Shown here: piece after piece, positions 686-63,993 of the stretch
How the letters are laid out: each line of letters begins with the position of its first letter
How positions within the stretch are numbered: position 1 is the stretch's first letter
Assembly: GCA_964590105.1 (NCBI GenBank)
Contig: CAZPYM010000004.1
Span: 52,198-116,197, forward strand
Reading direction: 5' to 3'
DNA length: 64,000 nucleotides
From: an uncultured Gammaproteobacteria bacterium
GTDB lineage: Bacteria; Patescibacteriota; Patescibacteriia; UBA11705; JABHMO01
Program-made: the position numbers and the translations under genes
The notes under the pieces: model-generated
Told to the model about the DNA's origin: nothing
Databases searched by the model: none
What the model saw: the letters and a program-made list of their open reading frames with translations, nothing else

Positions 686-2274
686 TATTTCTCAAAAAGA
701 ATTAACTGAGTCTGCTGAACACCGGTGATCTTGTCGGGAAAGTAATAGTATTTTACAGGTTTTAATTTTTGTTTCAAGTGGCCAACCAAATACCCTCCTG
801 GATCCTGAACTGACGTCTTTTGGGGCAAATAATTAAACAGCCAGATGCGTTCATAATTCTGAATCAGTTCTTCTGCTAATTTAACGTTTTCCTCCGTCAT
901 AACGTTGTAATCCCAATATAACCAGCGTTTATTTTCATTTTCAGAGACTAATTCATTGTTCAAAGGCAAAAAAAACTTTTTCTCCGCTCCGCCGTGATAG
1001 TAAAAAGGCAAAAGCAAATCATTGAAATGGTCAACTAGAATCAAATCGCCCGGCTGTTCATTGTTTTCAATAAATTGAAAAGCGTCCCTGGCATAATAAA
1101 GAAAACTGTCTGCTCGCGGCGGGAAATATGTCCTGGCCGTTGAGAGCCCGCTGGCTGCGATTATCAAGACCAGGAGACAAACTTTTGCAAATCTTTGGCG
1201 AATCTGAAAAAATACAGCCGCTATAAAAATTACCACGGGAACAGTGAATATCAAAAAATATTTTTCAGCATAAATAAACTTTAAGGCAGCCAGCCCCAAA
1301 AACCCTCCGACAATAAACCAGAACAATATCCGCATTTTTACTTCTGAACGGTATTTGACGGCCAAAACCATCAGCAAAACAAAAACAGCAAACCCGCCGG
1401 CAACAACCAACCAGCTCGATCCGCCAGTACGGCCGAACATTAAATTGTAAAAATATTTTCCGAAAATCAACGGACTGCCATGCGTAAATATTCTTGAAAA
1501 AAGCGGCGCAGGGCCACTACCGCCCGAAAATATATTTGACCAACGCCCAAAAATTAAAAGCTGTGGCAAAAATAAAATAAAGATTAATATATAATAACAA
1601 ACAATTCGCTTAATTTCTTCTCTGCGATAAATTACCATCAAAAAGCCTTGCAAGGCGACTAAAACAAAAGCCGTATAATGCGTGTACAAACAAAGAGTAG
1701 TAAACAAAACATATAACAGCCAATTTTTTTGGCTGGGTTTTTCCAAAATTCTCCACCAAAAGATCATTGACAAACAACTCAAAAAGACCAGCAAAGAGTA
1801 AGCCCTTATTTCAGTGGAATAATCAATATTCAACGCCGACAAACTAAAAAACAGACTACTGAGTAGGCCGATCTTGTAATTAAAAATTTGTTTTCCTAAA
1901 AAAAATATTGCCAAAACGCTTAAAATACTGAAAACAAAAGGCAAAACTGCCAACCCGATGATATTACTGCCAACAACCTTGTGCCAGCCCCACAAAGACA
2001 GATAAAATAAAGGCGGCGTGGAATCATAGGAGGACAATTGAATAACCCTGGAAAAATTCTGCTCAGCAAAATAAATTGAATAAGCCTCATCAAACCAGAT
2101 AATTTTTGACGAATTTATTCCTTGTTCCGGAATTATGGTTCTAAACTCCGGCAGCCGGGCAAAAATCGACAAGACCACGATAAATAACAGCCAACATCCG
2201 AGGTGAATTTTTTTATTCGCAGTCATAATTTTAATTGTTTGATCCGTAAATGTTTTACCCCAAACCGTAATCAA
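685..2274 (-). CDS. polytopic membrane glycosyltransferase, GT39/ArnT/PMT-like (family assignment tentative)
   Basis: Roughly 11-13 predicted TM helices followed by a ~150-aa soluble C-terminal domain. This architecture is typical of the ArnT/PMT_2 family. No catalytic motif was confirmed. Confidence 0.4.
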   Translation of the reverse strand: MITVWGKTFTDQTIKIMTANKKIHLGCWLLFIVVLSIFARLPEFRTIIPEQGINSSKIIWFDEAYSIYFAEQNFSRVIQLSSYDSTPPLFYLSLWGWHKVVGSNIIGLAVLPFVFSILSVLAIFFLGKQIFNYKIGLLSSLFFSLSALNIDYSTEIRAYSLLVFLSCLSMIFWWRILEKPSQKNWLLYVLFTTLCLYTHYTAFVLVALQGFLMVIYRREEIKRIVCYYILIFILFLPQLLIFGRWSNIFSGGSGPAPLFSRIFTHGSPLIFGKYFYNLMFGRTGGSSWLVVAGGFAVFVLLMVLAVKYRSEVKMRILFWFIVGGFLGLAALKFIYAEKYFLIFTVPVVIFIAAVFFQIRQRFAKVCLLVLIIAASGLSTARTYFPPRADSFLYYARDAFQFIENNEQPGDLILVDHFNDLLLPFYYHGGAEKKFFLPLNNELVSENENKRWLYWDYNVMTEENVKLAEELIQNYERIWLFNYLPQKTSVQDPGGYLVGHLKQKLKPVKYYYFPDKITGVQQTQLILFEK

Positions 2275-2300
2275 CGCGAGGCACTCCTTTTATCCACGTG

Positions 2301-3506
2301 TTAAAGCACATTAATTACCAACGCCGCCATCGCCGCCAAAAAAAACGAAGCAATCAGAGATCCGGTTAAAAAGAAAGTCAAAACAACCAGCCCGAGCATC
2401 ACCAGCCGCCCGAGAGTCAGGGCCAGCTCGCGCACCACTGTATATTCGTCGACATAATGCCCCGAATCAGCCGCTCGCTCATACATGAGCGCGTCAAAAG
2501 GAGTGCGCATGATAATATTGGCAAAACTGTGATAAGTACTGGCAATAAAAATCTGAAAGCCCGTGCCAACAAACATTTTTGCTATCCAACCAATAGAATT
2601 TAGAATCGTGCCAAAACGCATCACCCGGCGCTTGTCAAAACGGTCTGAAATATCGCCGAGCAATAACTGCAACACAATACTGCCAAGAATTATAAGTGAA
2701 GAAATTAAACCAACCGCCTGATAGTTTTGATTGAGCAAAAGCCAAATGAAAATCGGCCAAATAACGGTCCCCACTATCTCCTGCATACCGTCAGCGCCGT
2801 ATGACAAGAGCATGCGCCTGTGCTGGCGACTAAAAACTTCCCGATAGCTCTGCAAATAAGTAAAATCAAATTTTTCTCTGGTGTCCGGGATTAAAAAAAG
2901 CGGCACCACTGACATGATATAAATAATAAGCCCAATTAAAAACAAAACCCCGTATCCGTACACAAAAATAATTTCACCGGCGACAAAAGGCATGAAGATA
3001 CTGACCAGTGAAGCGATTGAAATCAAAAATGCCATCTGCTTTCCCCGAGTTTTCTTGTCGGTAAAGCTGGCAAAATCAGTGTGAAACGGCACCCAGTAAA
3101 AAAATCTGTCAATATTTACCGCCACGATCGCCAGCCCGAGGAAAATCAGCGCCCCATTTACTTCAAATGAACGCATGAAGTAAAACCACGCCCAGCCAAA
3201 ACAAACAGACAAAATCAAGGATTTTTTCATGCCGATCCTAGACATTGTTTTCGCGCCAAGCGGCACAATAAAAAACCAGATCAGCAGATTTATAAAATAA
3301 TAAACAGCCACTTTGTACAAAGAAAAATCCAGCATTTTATAAAGAAGGATCGGAACAAAAATCCCGATCAGCCCACCGGCCACCTGCTGGATAATGCGGT
3401 TAGAATAAAGCGCGGTCAGAGCGCCGGACAATTTCGTGTGCCTGAAGTTCTGAACAAATGATTCCACCGATTGATTGTGAGGAAAATGTTTTTCGTGCCG
3501 ATACAT
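2301..3506 (-). CDS. MFS-type transporter / polytopic membrane protein
   Basis: 401 aa with about 12 hydrophobic helices in two halves. It sits in a sugar-modification cluster. Confidence 0.4.
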   Translation of the reverse strand: MYRHEKHFPHNQSVESFVQNFRHTKLSGALTALYSNRIIQQVAGGLIGIFVPILLYKMLDFSLYKVAVYYFINLLIWFFIVPLGAKTMSRIGMKKSLILSVCFGWAWFYFMRSFEVNGALIFLGLAIVAVNIDRFFYWVPFHTDFASFTDKKTRGKQMAFLISIASLVSIFMPFVAGEIIFVYGYGVLFLIGLIIYIMSVVPLFLIPDTREKFDFTYLQSYREVFSRQHRRMLLSYGADGMQEIVGTVIWPIFIWLLLNQNYQAVGLISSLIILGSIVLQLLLGDISDRFDKRRVMRFGTILNSIGWIAKMFVGTGFQIFIASTYHSFANIIMRTPFDALMYERAADSGHYVDEYTVVRELALTLGRLVMLGLVVLTFFLTGSLIASFFLAAMAALVINVL

Positions 3507-3550
3507 AGGCTAAGAAAGAGATAGAGGTGTGAAGAGGCGAGAATTGAGAA

Positions 3551-3770
3551 AAAATTACAAAATACAAACCACAAATTACAAACAATGGGGCCAAAATTAC
3601 AAAGTCCAAACAAAAATGCGGAGAATAAAATACTAAAGCATAATCTATCACGGGACAACTAAGTTTATTATTTCAATTTATGATTTGTGATTCGTAATTT
3701 ATTCTTTGTAATTTGCTTGTAATTTGTTATTTTCGCCATAGGCGGACGAGTGCAATTTGTAATTTACTCC
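3551..3770. repeat. attacaaa-type heptamer-like repeat arrays in inverted arrangement (long imperfect palindrome)
   Basis: Left arm aaaattacaaaatacaaaccacaaattacaaacaat... versus right arm ...tttgtaatttgcttgtaatttgtt. Related attacaaa arrays at 9655-9715, 10290-10330, 20945-20990 and 38905-38965. Confidence 0.5.
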
Positions 3771-4702
3771 TCCTTCCTCTCTCGAACCCAATCTATTGTT
3801 TTTTTAATCCCCTGTTCAATAGAAGTTTGCGGTTCCCAATTTAATTCCCTTTTAATTTTTTCATAACTAAGACAACTGACTGCTTGGCCTGAAAAAACTT
3901 CCGCATGCTTAGGGGTCAGAGGAGAATGCAATTCATCTTTAATAAGCTTAAAAAGTTCATTAACAGTTGTTTGTTTAGCTGTGCCGACATTATATGTGCC
4001 CGATCTTTCGCTTTGAAAAGCCGCCATATTCGCCCGGACAATGTCGCCCACATACACATAGTCGCGCGTCTGGTGGCCGTCGCCGTGAATTATCGGGGTT
4101 AAGTTGTCCAACATTTTCTCAGCAAAAATGGAAATCACACCGGCTTCGCCCTTTGGATTTTGGCGCGGGCCGTAAACATTGGCATAGCGCATGATGGCAA
4201 ATTCCAAACCAAATTGCCGGCGGTAAAAACGAATATATTTTTCCAGCGCCAGCTTGGCCAGGCCGTATGGTGACAACGGTTCGCAGGGATATTTCTCGGG
4301 TGTTGGAACAACTTCCGCTTCGCCGTAAAGAGCGCCGCCGGTGGAGGAAAACAAAATTTTCTTAACTTTATTCTGAAGGCAAAGTTCAAGCACGTTGAGC
4401 CCGCCGAGGATATTTACATCCGCGTCAAACAACGGATCTTCAACTGAACGATTGACGCTGATCTGGGCGGCAAAATGAAACACATATTCCGGCCGCTCCT
4501 TTTCAAAAACTTCAGCTAGCGCTTCTTCACGAATGTCTGTTTTATATATTCTCGCGTTCGGATGCACATTTTTTTCCGAGCCACTGGAAAAATTATCAAC
4601 AACGGCGACGGAATAGCTTTCTTTGATCAGGGCGTCAACCATGTGCGAACCGATAAACCCCGCGCCGCCGGTAACAAGAACAGTTTGTTTGTTTAATACC
4701 AT
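3764..4702 (-). CDS. NAD-dependent epimerase/dehydratase (GalE-like UDP-sugar epimerase, SDR family)
   Basis: N-terminal Rossmann motif VLVTGGAGFIGSH. Catalytic SPYG...K spacing (PLSPYGLAKLALEKY). 312 aa. Confidence 0.75.
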   Translation of the reverse strand: MVLNKQTVLVTGGAGFIGSHMVDALIKESYSVAVVDNFSSGSEKNVHPNARIYKTDIREEALAEVFEKERPEYVFHFAAQISVNRSVEDPLFDADVNILGGLNVLELCLQNKVKKILFSSTGGALYGEAEVVPTPEKYPCEPLSPYGLAKLALEKYIRFYRRQFGLEFAIMRYANVYGPRQNPKGEAGVISIFAEKMLDNLTPIIHGDGHQTRDYVYVGDIVRANMAAFQSERSGTYNVGTAKQTTVNELFKLIKDELHSPLTPKHAEVFSGQAVSCLSYEKIKRELNWEPQTSIEQGIKKTIDWVRERKEE

Positions 4703-10334: not shown

Positions 10335-10425
10335 GAAAAAGGTGAAAGTTAAAAGATAAAAGGTAAAAGTTAAAATCGAAATTCAGTTTACACAATTAAC
10401 CTAATTAACTTAATTAACTTTCCTA
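10335..10425. repeat. composite intergenic repeat: (g)gtaaaag units, then tcgaaattcagtttacacaattaacc, then a taattaact array
   Basis: Near-identical composite copies at 20163-20262 and 36428-36580. A reverse-orientation copy lies upstream of the plus-strand SPFH gene (59570-59700). The ttaattaact arrays alone occur at 4729-4790 and 5305-5493. Confidence 0.6.
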
Positions 10426-10470
10426 CATTAACCCGAGCGAGGAGGAACGACGAGTCGAGGGTCGCGTTTT

Positions 10471-11157
10471 TCACCGCACCCGACAATCGAGGAACCACTC
10501 TTTGAACGGCTGCAAAATCTCATTAAGTTCCCTCTTAGTATAGGTTTTTTCAGAAGTAAAATTCTGATTGACCAGCTTGGCGGACGGACGAAATTGCTGC
10601 AGATAATACTTGCGCGATCCCTTGAGCTGCTGCGCCATCGCTTCAATATCCTCATGGGAATGCAGCGCTGGCAGCACGGTAGAACGAAATTCATAATCAA
10701 TCTTGCCCTGCTTTAATATCATAACACTTTTTTTGATTTTTGATAAGTCTATCGGCCGGCAAACAACTTTGGCGTATTTACGCCAGGGCGCTTTTATATC
10801 CATGGCTGCGTAGTCAACTAATTTTTTATCAATCAACTTTTGCAAAACTTCAGGATTTTGTCCGTTAGTGTCAATTTTAATTAAATATCCAAGTTTTTTT
10901 ATTTTTGTTAAAAAAGAAATAAGCCCGGTCTGAATAGTCGGCTCGCCGCCGGTAATACAAACCGCATCAAGCAATGACTGGCGGCCTTTCAAAAACTTCA
11001 ACACTGTGTCAGTGGAAATAACCCGAGCAATTCCTTTTACAATATCCGGATTATGACAAAAAGAGCAGCGAAAATTACATCCTATGGTAAATATTGTCGC
11101 CGCTACTTTGTCTGGATAATCAAGTAAAGTTGTCTTTTGGAGTCCGCCAATAAGCAT
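10471..11157 (-). CDS. nrdG: anaerobic ribonucleoside-triphosphate reductase activating protein (radical SAM)
   Basis: CNFRCSFCHNPD radical-SAM CxxxCxxC cluster near the N-terminus. ~228 aa. Immediately downstream of the nrdD pieces. Confidence 0.8.
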   Translation of the reverse strand: MLIGGLQKTTLLDYPDKVAATIFTIGCNFRCSFCHNPDIVKGIARVISTDTVLKFLKGRQSLLDAVCITGGEPTIQTGLISFLTKIKKLGYLIKIDTNGQNPEVLQKLIDKKLVDYAAMDIKAPWRKYAKVVCRPIDLSKIKKSVMILKQGKIDYEFRSTVLPALHSHEDIEAMAQQLKGSRKYYLQQFRPSAKLVNQNFTSEKTYTKRELNEILQPFKEWFLDCRVR

Positions 11158-11249
11158 AAAAATCCATGGTGAGTAGTGAGTGAAAAACAGGGATCTACCC
11201 TAATTTCTAGTTCCCAATTTCCAGCTTCCACCTATCTTCTTTATCCTAT

Positions 11250-11396
11250 TCAAATTTTTGTTAAAACTTTGTTAAATGTTTTACGATCGTTGAATTCTGC
11301 TTTTTTACCGTCGTTCCAACGATGAATCGGACTCAGATAACCAACTACCCGAGAATAAACTTCACATTTTTGTCTTTGCAGTTTTTGTAATGACAT
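11250..11396 (-). CDS. mini-ORF (48 aa) encoding the class III RNR glycyl-radical motif, detached from the nrdD body
   Basis: Hand translation gives MSLQKLQRQKCEVYSRVVGYLSPIHRWNDGKKAEFNDRKTFNKVLTKI. The RVxGYL...WNxGKxxE..R pattern matches the C-terminal glycyl-radical region of NrdD (T4/E. coli type RVCGYLG...). Strong SD (AAGGAGGAG) 4 nt upstream of the ATG. Below the 60-aa cutoff of the ORF track. Confidence 0.5.
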   Translation of the reverse strand: MSLQKLQRQKCEVYSRVVGYLSPIHRWNDGKKAEFNDRKTFNKVLTKI

Positions 11397-11495
11397 ATCT
11401 CCTCCTTTTTTTTACGCCGACGCGCGAACCAGCCACGAACAACCGATAAGCTTTGCCTTGGCGCATGTTATGAATTATGTTCTTTTTTGATAATT

Positions 11496-11678
11496 AATTA
11501 TTCTAATTATTCTAATTCCTCTAATTGCCCTAATTATTCTAAATAAGCTCCGGGCGCCAAATCCCAAATTTCAATTTTCAGATTCAGAAATTAGAATAAT
11601 TGGAATATTGGGATTTATTTAGGTTAATTATCCCAAAGGGATCACTTTGGGATAATAATTAGGTTAATTAGAATAATT
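11496..11678. mobile_element. MITE-like long imperfect palindromic element with ~22-bp terminal inverted repeats, inside the nrdD split
   Basis: Left arm aattattctaattattctaatt versus right arm aattaggttaattagaataatt (reverse complements match about 20 of 22). Central perfect hairpin tatcccaaag-ggatca-ctttgggata at 11626-11652. The internal halves are also mutually inverted. Confidence 0.4.
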
Positions 11679-11707
11679 TACTCAGCAAAAGTCAAACGTT
11701 CCTCGCG

Positions 11708-13786
11708 CTACGAGTTATTAATCACTGATTTTTGTTCTGTTTTTATTACTTTGTCAATATAGCCCATCTCTTCATCGCAGTAAGGACAGAATTCATGCTC
11801 ACCTTCAATATATCCATGCGTCGGGCAAACACTGAAAGTCGGCGTAATAGTAAAATATGGCAAACGAAAATTTTCCGCTATTTTTCTAACCAAAGATTTG
11901 GTGCTCTCGGCCGACGGAAGTCTCTCGCCCACAAAACCATGCAAAACAGTCCCGCCGGTATAACGCGTCTGCAAATCGTCCTGCAAGCGCAAAGCCTCAA
12001 AAATATCATCAGTATGGCCGACCGGCAGCTGGGTGGAATTGGTATAGTATGGAGCCGCCTTGGTGCTTTTGTAAGATTCTTCATTGGCAACTATTATGTC
12101 TGGAAATTCTTCCTTGTCAATCCGGGCAAAACGATAAGCCGTGCCTTCGGCCGGGGTGGCTTCAAGATTAAAAAGTTCATTGGTTTCATTTTGATAATCC
12201 ATCAGGCGCTCCCGCATAAAATCCAATATCTGGCGGGCGAATTTGTGGCCTTCCGGAGTGGTAATATCATTGCCCCCCCCTAACAGATTCAAACAAGCTT
12301 CATTAACACCATTTAAACCAATTGTATTAAAATGATTTTTCCAGTACTCACCGAATCTTTCTTTAATCCCACTAAGGTAATGCCTGGAATAAGGATATAA
12401 ACCTCCTTCAGTGAATTTTTCAAGCGCATTTCTTTTTATTTTCAAACTCTTTTTCGCGAGGTCCATCAGGTCAGCCAGCCGGCTGAAAAATTCTTCCTTG
12501 TCTTTTGATAAATAACCGAGACGTGGCATATTGATCGTGACTACGCCAATACTGCCGGTAAGAGGATTGGCGCCAAATAGTCCCCCGCCTCTTTTTCTGA
12601 GTTCACGATTGTCCAGGCGCAACCGGCAACACATACTCCTCGCATCTTCCGGTTTCATATCTGAATTAATAAAATTGGAAAAATATGGAATGCCATACTT
12701 GGCTGTCATAGCCATGATCTTTTCAATAATCGGCGCGTCCCAATCCCAGTCAGAAGTCACATTATAAGTGGGGATCGGCCAACTAAGCACTCGCCCCTTG
12801 CGGTCGCCCTCTGTCATCACTTCGACAAATGCCTGATTAAACATGTCCATTTCTTTTTGAAATTCGCCATAGGTCTCTTTTTGCGGCTCGCCACCAATAA
12901 TTACCGGCTCTTTTGCCAAAGTTGAAGGGACAAACAAATCAAGTGTTACATTTGTAAATGGGGTTTGAAAACCAACTCGCGTCGGCACATTGATATTGAA
13001 TAAAAACATCTGCACTTGCTGTCTGACTTGTTCGTAATTAAGTCCGTCATAGCGAATGAATGGCGCGGCCAAAGTATCCAGATTGGAAACAGCCTGAGCG
13101 CCGGCAGCTTCCCCCTGCAAGGTGTAGAAGAAATTAACCAGTTGACTAAGGGCGGTGGTGAAATGCTTTGGCGGCTTGCTTTCTACCTTGCCGCGCACAC
13201 CGCCAAAACCCCTCATTAATAAATCCTTGAAATCCCAGCCACAGCAATACGGAGCCAAAAGCTGTAAATCATGAATGTGAAGATTGCCTTTGGTATGAGC
13301 ATCTTTGATATCCGGCGAATATACTTTGTTCAGCCAATAATTGGTGCTGATGGATGAGGCTACGAAATTATTCAACCCTTGCAAAGAATAGTCCATGTTG
13401 CTGTTTTCTTTGACTTTCCAGTCCAGCTGCTTCAAATAGCTCTCCATCAACTCGTCCGAATTAATAAGCGACTTGATATCCCTCATCTTGGCATGCTGGT
13501 CGCGATAAATAATATAAGCTTTAACTACCTTGATCAGCTTGTTTTCAATCAGAATTTCCTCAACAATATCCTGAATCTCTTCGACAGCAGGGATAGATCT
13601 TTCGTGAAATTTTTGATTTAAACGCTCAACAACCTGATCTGCTATTTGTTCAGCTTTTCCCTTATCTGGCTGGCTGGTTGCCCTCATGGCATTGAAAACA
13701 GCCAGAGCAATTTTGCTCTGATCAAAATCAACAATCCGATCATCGCGCTTTCTGATCTGAATAATTTTGTTTGCAGTGTATACCAT
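11708..13786 (-). CDS. nrdD: anaerobic ribonucleoside-triphosphate reductase (class III), body lacking the glycyl-radical motif
   Basis: N-terminal ATP-cone (VYTANKIIQIRKRDDRIVDFDQSKIALAV). Large catalytic barrel. C-terminal Zn ribbon CPTHGY...CPYCDEE. No RVxGY glycyl-radical motif before the stop. Confidence 0.85.
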   Translation of the reverse strand: MVYTANKIIQIRKRDDRIVDFDQSKIALAVFNAMRATSQPDKGKAEQIADQVVERLNQKFHERSIPAVEEIQDIVEEILIENKLIKVVKAYIIYRDQHAKMRDIKSLINSDELMESYLKQLDWKVKENSNMDYSLQGLNNFVASSISTNYWLNKVYSPDIKDAHTKGNLHIHDLQLLAPYCCGWDFKDLLMRGFGGVRGKVESKPPKHFTTALSQLVNFFYTLQGEAAGAQAVSNLDTLAAPFIRYDGLNYEQVRQQVQMFLFNINVPTRVGFQTPFTNVTLDLFVPSTLAKEPVIIGGEPQKETYGEFQKEMDMFNQAFVEVMTEGDRKGRVLSWPIPTYNVTSDWDWDAPIIEKIMAMTAKYGIPYFSNFINSDMKPEDARSMCCRLRLDNRELRKRGGGLFGANPLTGSIGVVTINMPRLGYLSKDKEEFFSRLADLMDLAKKSLKIKRNALEKFTEGGLYPYSRHYLSGIKERFGEYWKNHFNTIGLNGVNEACLNLLGGGNDITTPEGHKFARQILDFMRERLMDYQNETNELFNLEATPAEGTAYRFARIDKEEFPDIIVANEESYKSTKAAPYYTNSTQLPVGHTDDIFEALRLQDDLQTRYTGGTVLHGFVGERLPSAESTKSLVRKIAENFRLPYFTITPTFSVCPTHGYIEGEHEFCPYCDEEMGYIDKVIKTEQKSVINNS

Positions 13787-44725: not shown

Positions 44726-44860
44726 GATTACCTCCTTGGTGAATTATTCTAATTGTTCTATTTGAACTTTCCGAAAACCAGTGTTATCATAACATAATGC
44801 AAAAGAAGGGCAAGACACCGTAAATACAGACGCAAAATTTTACGTCTCTACTCATCACCT

Positions 44861-63907: not shown

Positions 63908-63993
63908 GCCGCCGTGGCGAAACTGGTAGACGCGCACGACTCAAAATCGTGTGGAGTTCCTCCATGTCGGTTCGACTCCGACCGGCGGCACCA
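63908..63993 (+). tRNA. tRNA-Leu (anticodon CAA), class II with long variable arm, CCA encoded
   Basis: gccgccgtggcgaaactggtagacgcgcacgactcaaaatcgtgtggagttcctccatgtcggttcgactccgaccggcggcacca. The 7-bp acceptor stem gccgccg/cggcggc pairs. The anticodon loop CUCAAAA gives CAA. Near-identical in layout to E. coli tRNA-Leu(CAA). Confidence 0.85.

Follow-up and report, generated by a model that had tools for sequence, protein, structure and literature searches.

Introduction

Glycyl-radical enzymes are regarded as single chains, in which a buried C-terminal loop swings out to meet the activase, and they are cleaved by oxygen at the radical glycine. Among the class III ribonucleotide reductases (RNRs) this loop belongs to NrdD, which in the canonical single-chain systems of T4, E. 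coli, Thermotoga maritima and Prevotella copri is composed, in order, of an ATP-cone, a catalytic barrel, a zinc ribbon and an RVxGY loop, and is partnered by the activase NrdG. Here, we describe an nrdD locus from a stretch of 64,000 nucleotides of contig CAZPYM010000004.1, referred to below as the window, which keeps the same domain order and likewise has an adjacent NrdG2-type radical S-adenosylmethionine (SAM) activase. In contrast to canonical NrdD, the radical loop is a separate 48-residue product, referred to as the mini, that is encoded 311 nt downstream of a 692-residue body, and the second zinc ligand is a histidine (CPTH) rather than a cysteine.

Three groups of described systems bear some likeness to this arrangement. 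GrcA/YfiD (and T4 Y06I) is, like the mini, a small stand-alone protein bearing only the radical module of a large glycyl-radical enzyme, in this case pyruvate formate-lyase (PFL). YfiD/GrcA binds oxygen-cleaved PFL and restores its activity; the PFL activase presumably acts on it too, and it is presumed to work in trans (PMC8683613). Unlike the mini, GrcA is a homologue of the PFL C-terminus, coexists with a loop-bearing PFL and acts only after oxygen damage. Phage T4 reportedly also encodes a GrcA-like protein, a finding attributed to Wagner et al. in 2001. According to a review of June 2026, such spare-part proteins are known only for the formate lyases, and the PFL activating enzyme (PFL-AE) is able to activate a peptide of just 7 residues (PMC13450708).

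The second system is NrdJa/NrdJb, the split class II RNR of Pseudomonas aeruginosa, which is active as a complex and needs both chains (PMC4520616; PMC9669993), and which was described in 2015 as a unique split RNR in a free-living organism (PMC4520616). As in the window, the reductase is divided close to its C-terminal end, and the larger of the two chains is the catalytic one; NrdJb, however, carries a zinc finger and a dithiol tail for re-reduction and no radical site, and NrdJ belongs to the B12-dependent class. The third group is formed by the split phage RNR genes, which include the T-even nrdD with a group I intron, the Aeh1 nrdA-a/nrdA-b pair split by mobE, and the nrdD of phiAS4 (PMC3653736). 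Here, too, nrdD may come in pieces, but these phage cases involve introns, inteins and homing endonucleases at various sites, whereas the window displays a conserved, selected separation of a radical peptide of about 45 residues with no mobile element at the break. Our literature searches found no description of a class III RNR divided so that the glycyl-radical peptide is separate, or of a spare part for NrdD, nor one of the recurrence of such a split in bacteria and archaea or of phage-borne minis.

A Radical Loop Encoded Apart from the NrdD Body

The genes lie on the minus strand in the order body, 311-nt spacer, mini, 92 nt and nrdG. The body (11708..13786) harbors an ATP-cone domain (residues 9-99, 13490..13762; Pfam PF03477, E 3.1e-20), the catalytic barrel and a zinc ribbon. 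The adjacent cysteines Cys386-Cys387, in the motif SMCCRL (12626..12631), are presumed from their position in the sequence, and from what is known of the NrdD finger loop (PMC9669993), to be the site of the thiyl radical. The zinc ribbon, C654-x2-H657-x9-C667-x2-C670 (11777..11827), is complete inside the body; its four ligands are colinear with CLDC...CPKC of P. copri NrdD, giving a predicted metal site, and the CPxHGY...CPxC pattern is also found in fused relatives. The C-terminus of the body reads FSVC(654)PTH(657)GYIEGEHEFC(667)PYC(670)DEEMGYIDKVIKTEQKSVINNS* and stops 22 residues beyond the last zinc cysteine. The RVxGY motif is absent, and both the reading frame and the family profiles bear out the original prediction, made from the sequence alone, that the 692-residue NrdD ends after its zinc ribbon without a glycyl-radical loop.

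The body terminates at a TAG codon, and the 311 nt that follow (11397..11707, minus strand; the original prediction had counted 310) form a non-coding spacer (G+C content, 34%) that includes AATTAG-type repeats as well as a hairpin of 12 bp and carries stops in all frames before a new Shine-Dalgarno site and ATG are reached. The Shine-Dalgarno site, AAGGAGGAG (11399..11407, minus strand), had been described as strong and spaced 4 nt from the start codon; this distance holds for the GGAGG core, but AAGGAGGAG itself (11407-11399) ends only 2 nt before the ATG. The mini (11250..11396, minus strand) has the sequence MSLQKLQRQKCEVYSRVVGYLSPIHRWNDGKKAEFNDRKTFNKVLTKI and encodes the entire glycyl-radical loop (CEVYSRVVGY...WNDGKKAEFNDRK), comprising Cys11, Gly19 within RVVGY and the WNDGKKAEFNDRK helix. 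The radical is predicted to reside on Gly19, whose codon is GGT (11340..11342, minus strand); the residue does not vary in alignment A1 and falls in register with RI(V/T)GY of the T. maritima and P. copri enzymes. At this locus the barrel and the radical loop do not lie on one polypeptide chain, a departure from single-chain NrdD that had been correctly recognized, and every other sequence feature by which NrdD was judged is present.

The two products tile the NrdD family profiles without a gap and with next to no overlap. In the Pfam NRDD profile of 562 positions, residues 127-678 of the body match positions 1-537 (E 5e-181) and the mini matches 531-562 (E 3.9e-10). In NCBIfam TIGR02487, with 581 positions, the body covers 1-549, scoring 520.3 bits against a cut-off of 326, and the mini covers 549-580. 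In the equivalog model NF006126, with 684 positions, the corresponding segments are 3-663 and 649-682, with 1050.7 bits for the body against a cut-off of 548. The same tiling is seen with NrdD sequences taken from the PDB: the body aligns up to residue 710 of the P. copri enzyme and the mini at 712-737, while in T. maritima NrdD they align at 99-610 and 616-646, respectively. Compared with fused full-length NrdDs, the body is 59-65% identical over residues of about 5-681. The glycyl-radical motif that the original prediction had seen in the 48-residue frame is no chance match, given the profile E-value of 3.9e-10 and the tiling of profiles and PDB sequences. NRDD is the only Pfam match of the mini, and the PFL-type Gly_radical profile did not match it at E-values up to 1. 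The analogy with GrcA/YfiD that had been drawn stands as a mode of working but not as family membership, since the mini belongs to the NrdD family and not to that of PFL.

Downstream of the mini, nrdG (10471..11157, minus strand) encodes a radical SAM protein of 228 residues that matches Pfam Radical_SAM and scores 210.9 bits against the NrdG2 model TIGR02495, above the cut-off of 131.15. The activase is intact, as had been proposed.

Independent Assemblies and Selection

The split is not peculiar to one assembly. Five independent assemblies (from ENA, JGI and three Logan runs) match the window at 100% identity over 651 nt that span the end of the body, the spacer, the mini and the start of nrdG; a sixth is likewise 100% identical over 603 nt, where its contig ends. 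The assemblies with the identical locus derive from different samples, and the exact 48-residue mini protein is recorded from 14 contigs. Because six independent assemblies agree in this way, the locus is not an assembly artefact, an outcome that would have counted against the original prediction.

Comparison of the mini with its closest relatives gives proportions of synonymous differences (pS) of 0.88-0.95, which are saturated, against proportions of nonsynonymous differences (pN) of 0.014-0.054; pN/pS is 0.015 with respect to relative L084 and 0.057 with respect to L004. Judged by these substitution patterns, the mini is a translated gene under strong purifying selection and, since its synonymous sites are saturated while pN/pS remains at 0.015-0.057, it is not a pseudogene.

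Distribution and Gene Order of the Split

A protein search with the mini returned at least 122 clusters (at 90% identity) of stand-alone homologues. In the 120 clusters listed these proteins are 41-84 residues long and NRDD is their only Pfam domain. They originate from Patescibacteria (Kuenen- and Falkowbacteria), Synergistales, Elusimicrobia, Bathyarchaeota and other archaea, and some of them sit on contigs of 0.4-2.9 Mb. GTDB was also scanned, using one genome per species and keeping the best 80 loci with up to 6 kb on each side. Just over half of these (42/80) harbor a fused NrdD, either of canonical length (708-795 residues) or longer with inteins. Related genomes, in which the original prediction had proposed to look for the same split, do contain it: 28 of the 80 best loci are cleanly split, from Patescibacteria, DPANN archaea, Halanaerobiales (here one is a sequenced strain and not a metagenome-assembled genome, or MAG), Synergistales-like bacteria and Acetothermia. 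Two further loci (L063 and L071) resemble frameshifted fused genes, and the remaining eight carry the motif with no NrdD body within up to 6 kb on each side. The split is common to the whole clade of the window, which comprises the window itself, L004, L084, L008, L030, L082 and L018.

Most split loci (21/28) have the order found in the window, body-mini-nrdG; the body stop and the mini are often no more than about 1-50 nt apart, and in L059 the stop directly abuts the ATG of the mini. The other seven have the order body-nrdG-mini. On a 2.9-Mb Synergistales-like contig, for instance, nrdG shares 4 nt with the body, and 36 nt separate its end from the mini, while in the sequenced strain Halanaerobium saccharolyticum MA284_T2 the TAG of the body abuts the ATG of nrdG and the mini lies 130 nt past nrdG, behind GAAAGGAGG. 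The Halanaerobium saccharolyticum sequence NZ_SNWX01000002 comprises the body, nrdG and a mini of 44 residues. In Falkowbacteria RIFOXYC2_FULL_36_12 (L005 6001-6147) a 48-residue mini is located directly after mraZ-rsmH of the cell-division cluster; this copy is unlinked, neither an NrdD body nor nrdG being found within 6 kb, and its protein (P0028) is recorded from 20 contigs. In all of the 30 other split loci the start codon of the mini is found 4-12 codons ahead of the invariant cysteine, and many have a GGAGG site. As nrdG can stand between the pieces, the mini can be unlinked and the minis have their own start codons, the arrangement is incompatible with RNA splicing or ribosomal bypassing.

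The Break Point

Fused relatives follow the layout CPxHGY...CPxC-(linker)-CEVYSRVVGYLRP...WNxGKxAEF, in which the linker from CxxC to C-EVYSR varies between 3 residues (Bathyarchaeia, CGAKC) and about 18 (L009, L058). The distance from the last zinc cysteine to the radical glycine ranges accordingly, from 11 residues in Bathyarchaeia (CPxCGAKCEVYSRVVG) to 26 in L009 (CSICDEENGYVEGMVVDEKRQKCEVFSRIVG). The proposal that a fusion of the two products could be recognized by a canonical spacing of 15-17 residues is hence not diagnostic, as fused members span 11-26. The fused L009 sequence, which reads CDEENGYVEGMVVDEKRQKCEVFSRIVGY / CSICDEENGYVEGMVVDEKRQKCEVFSRIVGY, is colinear with the body tail of the window, CDEEMGYID... 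(CPYCDEEMGYID...), and with the head of its mini, ...LQRQKCEVYSRVVGY / ...KLQRQKCEVYSRVVGY, which places the break inside this linker of variable length. To cut the protein between zinc ribbon and loop, where the linker differs so much in length among homologous sequences, would cost little structure.

A neighbour-joining (NJ) distance tree of the bodies, built from tblastn-anchored columns, is crude and its deep nodes are unreliable, but split and fused bodies are interleaved in it, as in the pairs L024/L058, L059/L045 and L010/L034 and in the position of the window clade beside the fused L009. This pattern suggests that several independent splits or fusions took place.

No mobile element or intein was found at the break, and the insertions seen in relatives map elsewhere, at in-frame sites around body positions 274/275, 335, 370-387, 549 and 610-617. 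Large in-frame insertions of this sort are found in the bodies of L084, L017, L018, L019, L022, L023, L029, L045, L058 and L060. The one in L084 comprises 322 residues at Q274/T275 (residues 275-596 of the body frame 754-3801) and has intein-like ends (CMSADTEIL...FITGN, followed by T), while a Pfam scan of the insertion found no intein domain. The open frame of L060 extends over at least 2038 residues and runs off the end of its contig.

Cys11 of the mini (11364-11366), directly before EVYSRVVGY, is invariant in 21 aligned minis and is also found in most fused relatives; the equivalent residue is threonine in the fused NrdDs of Desulfobacterales and alanine in L026. A role for Cys11 as a fourth zinc ligand was considered and dropped, because the C-x2-H...C-x2-C set of the body is already colinear with the four-cysteine site of P. 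copri NrdD and because some fused relatives have threonine or alanine at that position.

Autonomous and Virus-Borne Radical Modules

A second family of small proteins with an NrdD-type loop is found in Desulfobacterales and Thermodesulfobacteriota, where at least 588 clusters are present. These proteins, of about 116 residues, consist of a Cys-rich N-terminal domain (CHDC...CxxC) followed by the loop (CEVYSRVVGYLRPVxQWND...). Examples are L011 5767-6120, L021, L035, L036, L073 and L081, and proteins P0121-P0240. Their genes are solitary and occur in varied contexts, with no NrdD body or nrdG within up to 6 kb on each side. In two MAGs, JASFPT01 and CBFCZJ01, such a protein coexists with a full-length fused NrdD (the pairs L035+L061 and L036+L077). 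By analogy with GrcA, the family may provide a spare part for class III RNR. An AlphaFold2 model of the family had a mean predicted local distance difference test (pLDDT) score of 61.6, with less than 50 in the Gly-loop, and a Foldseek comparison of it with the PDB gave no significant match.

At present these proteins are annotated either as 'NrdD' or as hypothetical. One autonomous protein of about 119 residues is encoded on a 2.4-Mb contig (L094 6001-6360) near a hybrid-cluster protein (Prismane) and a Crp/Fnr-type regulator, a neighbourhood suggestive of some connection with redox or oxygen stress; this gene context is not conserved in L095 and L096.

Minis are also carried by viruses. From a scan of IMG/VR the best 80 viral loci (L097-L176) were kept with up to 4 kb on each side. 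About two-thirds of them (54/80) contain a motif-bearing frame of 41-99 residues, and in these tblastn detected neither the NrdD body nor the NrdG of the window within up to 4 kb on each side; a fused NrdD is present in nine. In L099 the small and large terminase subunits directly follow the mini (1351-1476), and a portal protein is found near the mini of L098. The mini of L097 (22-129), which is 86% identical to that of the window, has a tail fibre gene as its neighbour; that of L106 (4001-4120) is flanked by a Mu-F-like head protein and a Gp46 scaffold; and head-tail adaptor and head assembly proteins are encoded near the minis of L124 and L132. These terminase, portal, head and tail neighbours identify the contigs as phages. 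No PHROGs family was found for the phage minis. The phage mini may represent an auxiliary metabolic gene of a new kind.

The archaeal virus ANMV-1 (KP703175) provides a related case. Its 144-residue coding sequence (AJP62049.1; L177 3686-4120) comprises only the Cys-rich domain and the Gly loop, and is annotated in GenBank as 'anaerobic ribonucleoside triphosphate reductase'. From this coding sequence the ANMV-1 paper inferred a viral oxygen-sensitive RNR (PMC4372165).

How the Two Pieces May Work

The locus very probably encodes a true two-polypeptide class III RNR, in which a separately made radical peptide docks non-covalently and is activated by NrdG. The original prediction had offered a separate subunit as one of two alternatives, and this alternative gains support from the mini's own ATG and Shine-Dalgarno site, from purifying selection and from the loci in which the mini lies downstream of nrdG or is unlinked. 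In the mechanism that we propose, the 692-residue body would provide the ATP-cone, the barrel with the finger-loop cysteines and a complete Cys3His zinc ribbon, while the 48-residue product, translated from its own Shine-Dalgarno site and ATG, would provide the radical loop and a short C-terminal helix. The peptide would dock non-covalently into the barrel where the C-terminal tail of a single-chain NrdD lies. NrdG would abstract the C-alpha hydrogen of Gly19, acting either on the free peptide or on a flipped-out loop, and the radical would then pass to a finger-loop cysteine (C386/C387), as in canonical NrdD. Precedents make such a scheme plausible, namely the action of PFL-AE on a peptide, that of YfiD on PFL and the NrdJa/NrdJb complex. 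As the body itself lacks a radical loop, the mini is probably an obligate subunit and not a spare.

The likely benefit of the arrangement would be that oxygen destroys only a 5-kDa peptide, which can be replaced, while the 80-kDa body is spared. This is a speculative conjecture, on which our own judgment is almost evenly divided. The unlinked copy in Falkowbacteria (L005) and the phage-borne copies show that the mini can be an autonomous gene, whose product might act in trans. That phages carry the mini alone, and that the proteins of about 116 residues accompany a full-length NrdD, suggests a trans-acting, replaceable radical module. A still wider idea, to which we give somewhat less than even odds, is that the NrdD radical loop is a free-standing, exchangeable protein cofactor, consumable and rate-limiting for anaerobic deoxyribonucleoside triphosphate (dNTP) synthesis, which NrdG activates in trans and which is swapped after oxygen damage. 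Such a cofactor would come in three forms. The first would be the obligate 41-60-residue subunit of split NrdDs, the split seeming to be recurrent in Patescibacteria, DPANN archaea, Halanaerobiales, Synergistales-like bacteria and others. A candidate for the second is the protein of about 116 residues with a Cys-rich N-terminal domain, which is found beside full-length NrdD in Desulfobacterota and in an archaeal virus. The third would be an auxiliary gene that phages bring in unaccompanied by body or activase, and by which they might boost the host enzyme.

Several considerations weigh against a two-polypeptide enzyme of this kind. The separate translation and the assembly of the pieces are inferred from sequence. 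The analysis covers 64 kb of the genome, and a full-length nrdD or an RNR of another class elsewhere might make the split copy dispensable. The split could also be a neutral event that was tolerated at a flexible linker, and the number of independent splits is uncertain, given the unreliable deep nodes of the NJ tree.

If the two-polypeptide enzyme is correct, it touches on the questions of how the loop meets its activase and how cells handle irreversible oxygen cleavage at the radical glycine. A separate radical peptide of about 5 kDa offers a direct experimental handle, as it could be synthesized, isotopically labelled, activated alone and titrated into the body, and the occurrence of the split in a sequenced strain of Halanaerobium saccharolyticum makes the system testable at the bench. 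The spare-part idea would be extended beyond the formate lyases, and the minis found in phages point to a novel type of auxiliary metabolic gene. There are consequences for annotation as well, in that the bodies are now called complete NrdDs while the minis are called hypothetical or miscalled 'NrdD'.

Alternative Explanations

The other alternative of the original prediction was an intervening sequence, such as a group I or group II intron or another self-splicing element, whose removal would restore a single chain as in the nrdD of the T-even phages. Phage nrdD genes split by group I introns and homing endonucleases are documented (PMC3653736), and the spacer folds somewhat better than shuffled sequence (z-score -3.4), although this value is driven by local hairpins and repeats that are absent from relatives. 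An Rfam search of 10900-12200 in permissive E-value mode found no intron and no other family in the spacer, and a search of the whole window in gathering mode found no intron, the sole family above threshold being a tRNA at 63908-63990. The spacer is, moreover, conserved in neither sequence nor length: it measures 104 nt in L004 and 199 nt in L084, which has different repeats of its own, and neither can be aligned with the 311 nt of the window even though the bodies are 84% identical to the window body. With a Shine-Dalgarno site and ATG of the mini that are conserved across lineages, with nrdG between the pieces or the mini unlinked in other lineages and with the mini alone in phages, an intron is most improbable. 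Trans-splicing by a split intein at Cys11, which would join the two products into one chain, is harder still to credit. The NrdD bodies of relatives are rich in inteins, the L084 insertion being an example, and the invariant cysteine just before EVYSR resembles a +1 extein residue. Against this, the 22 residues after the last zinc cysteine and the 10 before Cys11 are too short for intein halves, Pfam detects no intein domain, the cysteine is equally conserved in fused relatives and replaced by threonine or alanine in some, and no relative has an intein at the break, the insertions being confined to the sites around 274, 335, 370-387, 549 and 610-617.

It might also be that the gene is decaying, with a recent repeat-rich insertion having broken nrdD and left the 48-residue frame as a remnant. 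The spacer does hold 7 of the 9 AATTAG-type repeat matches of the window and is longer than the spacers of relatives. A recent break is difficult to reconcile, however, with a split that is shared by all seven members of the window clade, with a mini that has saturated synonymous sites but hardly any amino-acid change, with an uninterrupted body frame of 692 residues that scores 1050 bits against the equivalog model, or with an intact nrdG, and we regard decay as very unlikely. A chimeric join or a frameshift introduced by assembly or sequencing has next to no likelihood; although such errors may affect L063 and L071, which are 2 of the 30 split GTDB loci and look like frameshifted fused genes, the sequence of the window recurs without a single difference over 651 nt in five independent assemblies and over 603 nt in a sixth, and past the TAG of the body all frames are interrupted by stops within the next 311 nt. 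The two-polypeptide enzyme remains the reading that we prefer.

Minor Features of the Spacer

The hairpin of the spacer, AUUAUCCCAAAG-UGAUCC-CUUUGGGAUAAU (11627..11656, minus strand), appears in both the minimum-free-energy and the centroid structures and lies about 50 nt past the stop codon of the body. It is not followed by a T-tract, and a role as a terminator is unproven. A promoter and terminator scan of the spacer gave only weak consensus matches (a promoter-like 9/12 match at 11560-11533 and a terminator-like one at 11568-11549), which are not used as evidence. Repeats resembling AATTAGAATAATTAG, with at most 2 mismatches, occur 9 times in the window against 0.4 expected; seven are located in the nrdD spacer (11494-11544, 11589-11603 and 11657-11680) and the other two near 44.75 kb (44740-44763). 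AATTA-rich strings similar to the spacer repeats are also present 3' of nrdG, at about 10400-10430.

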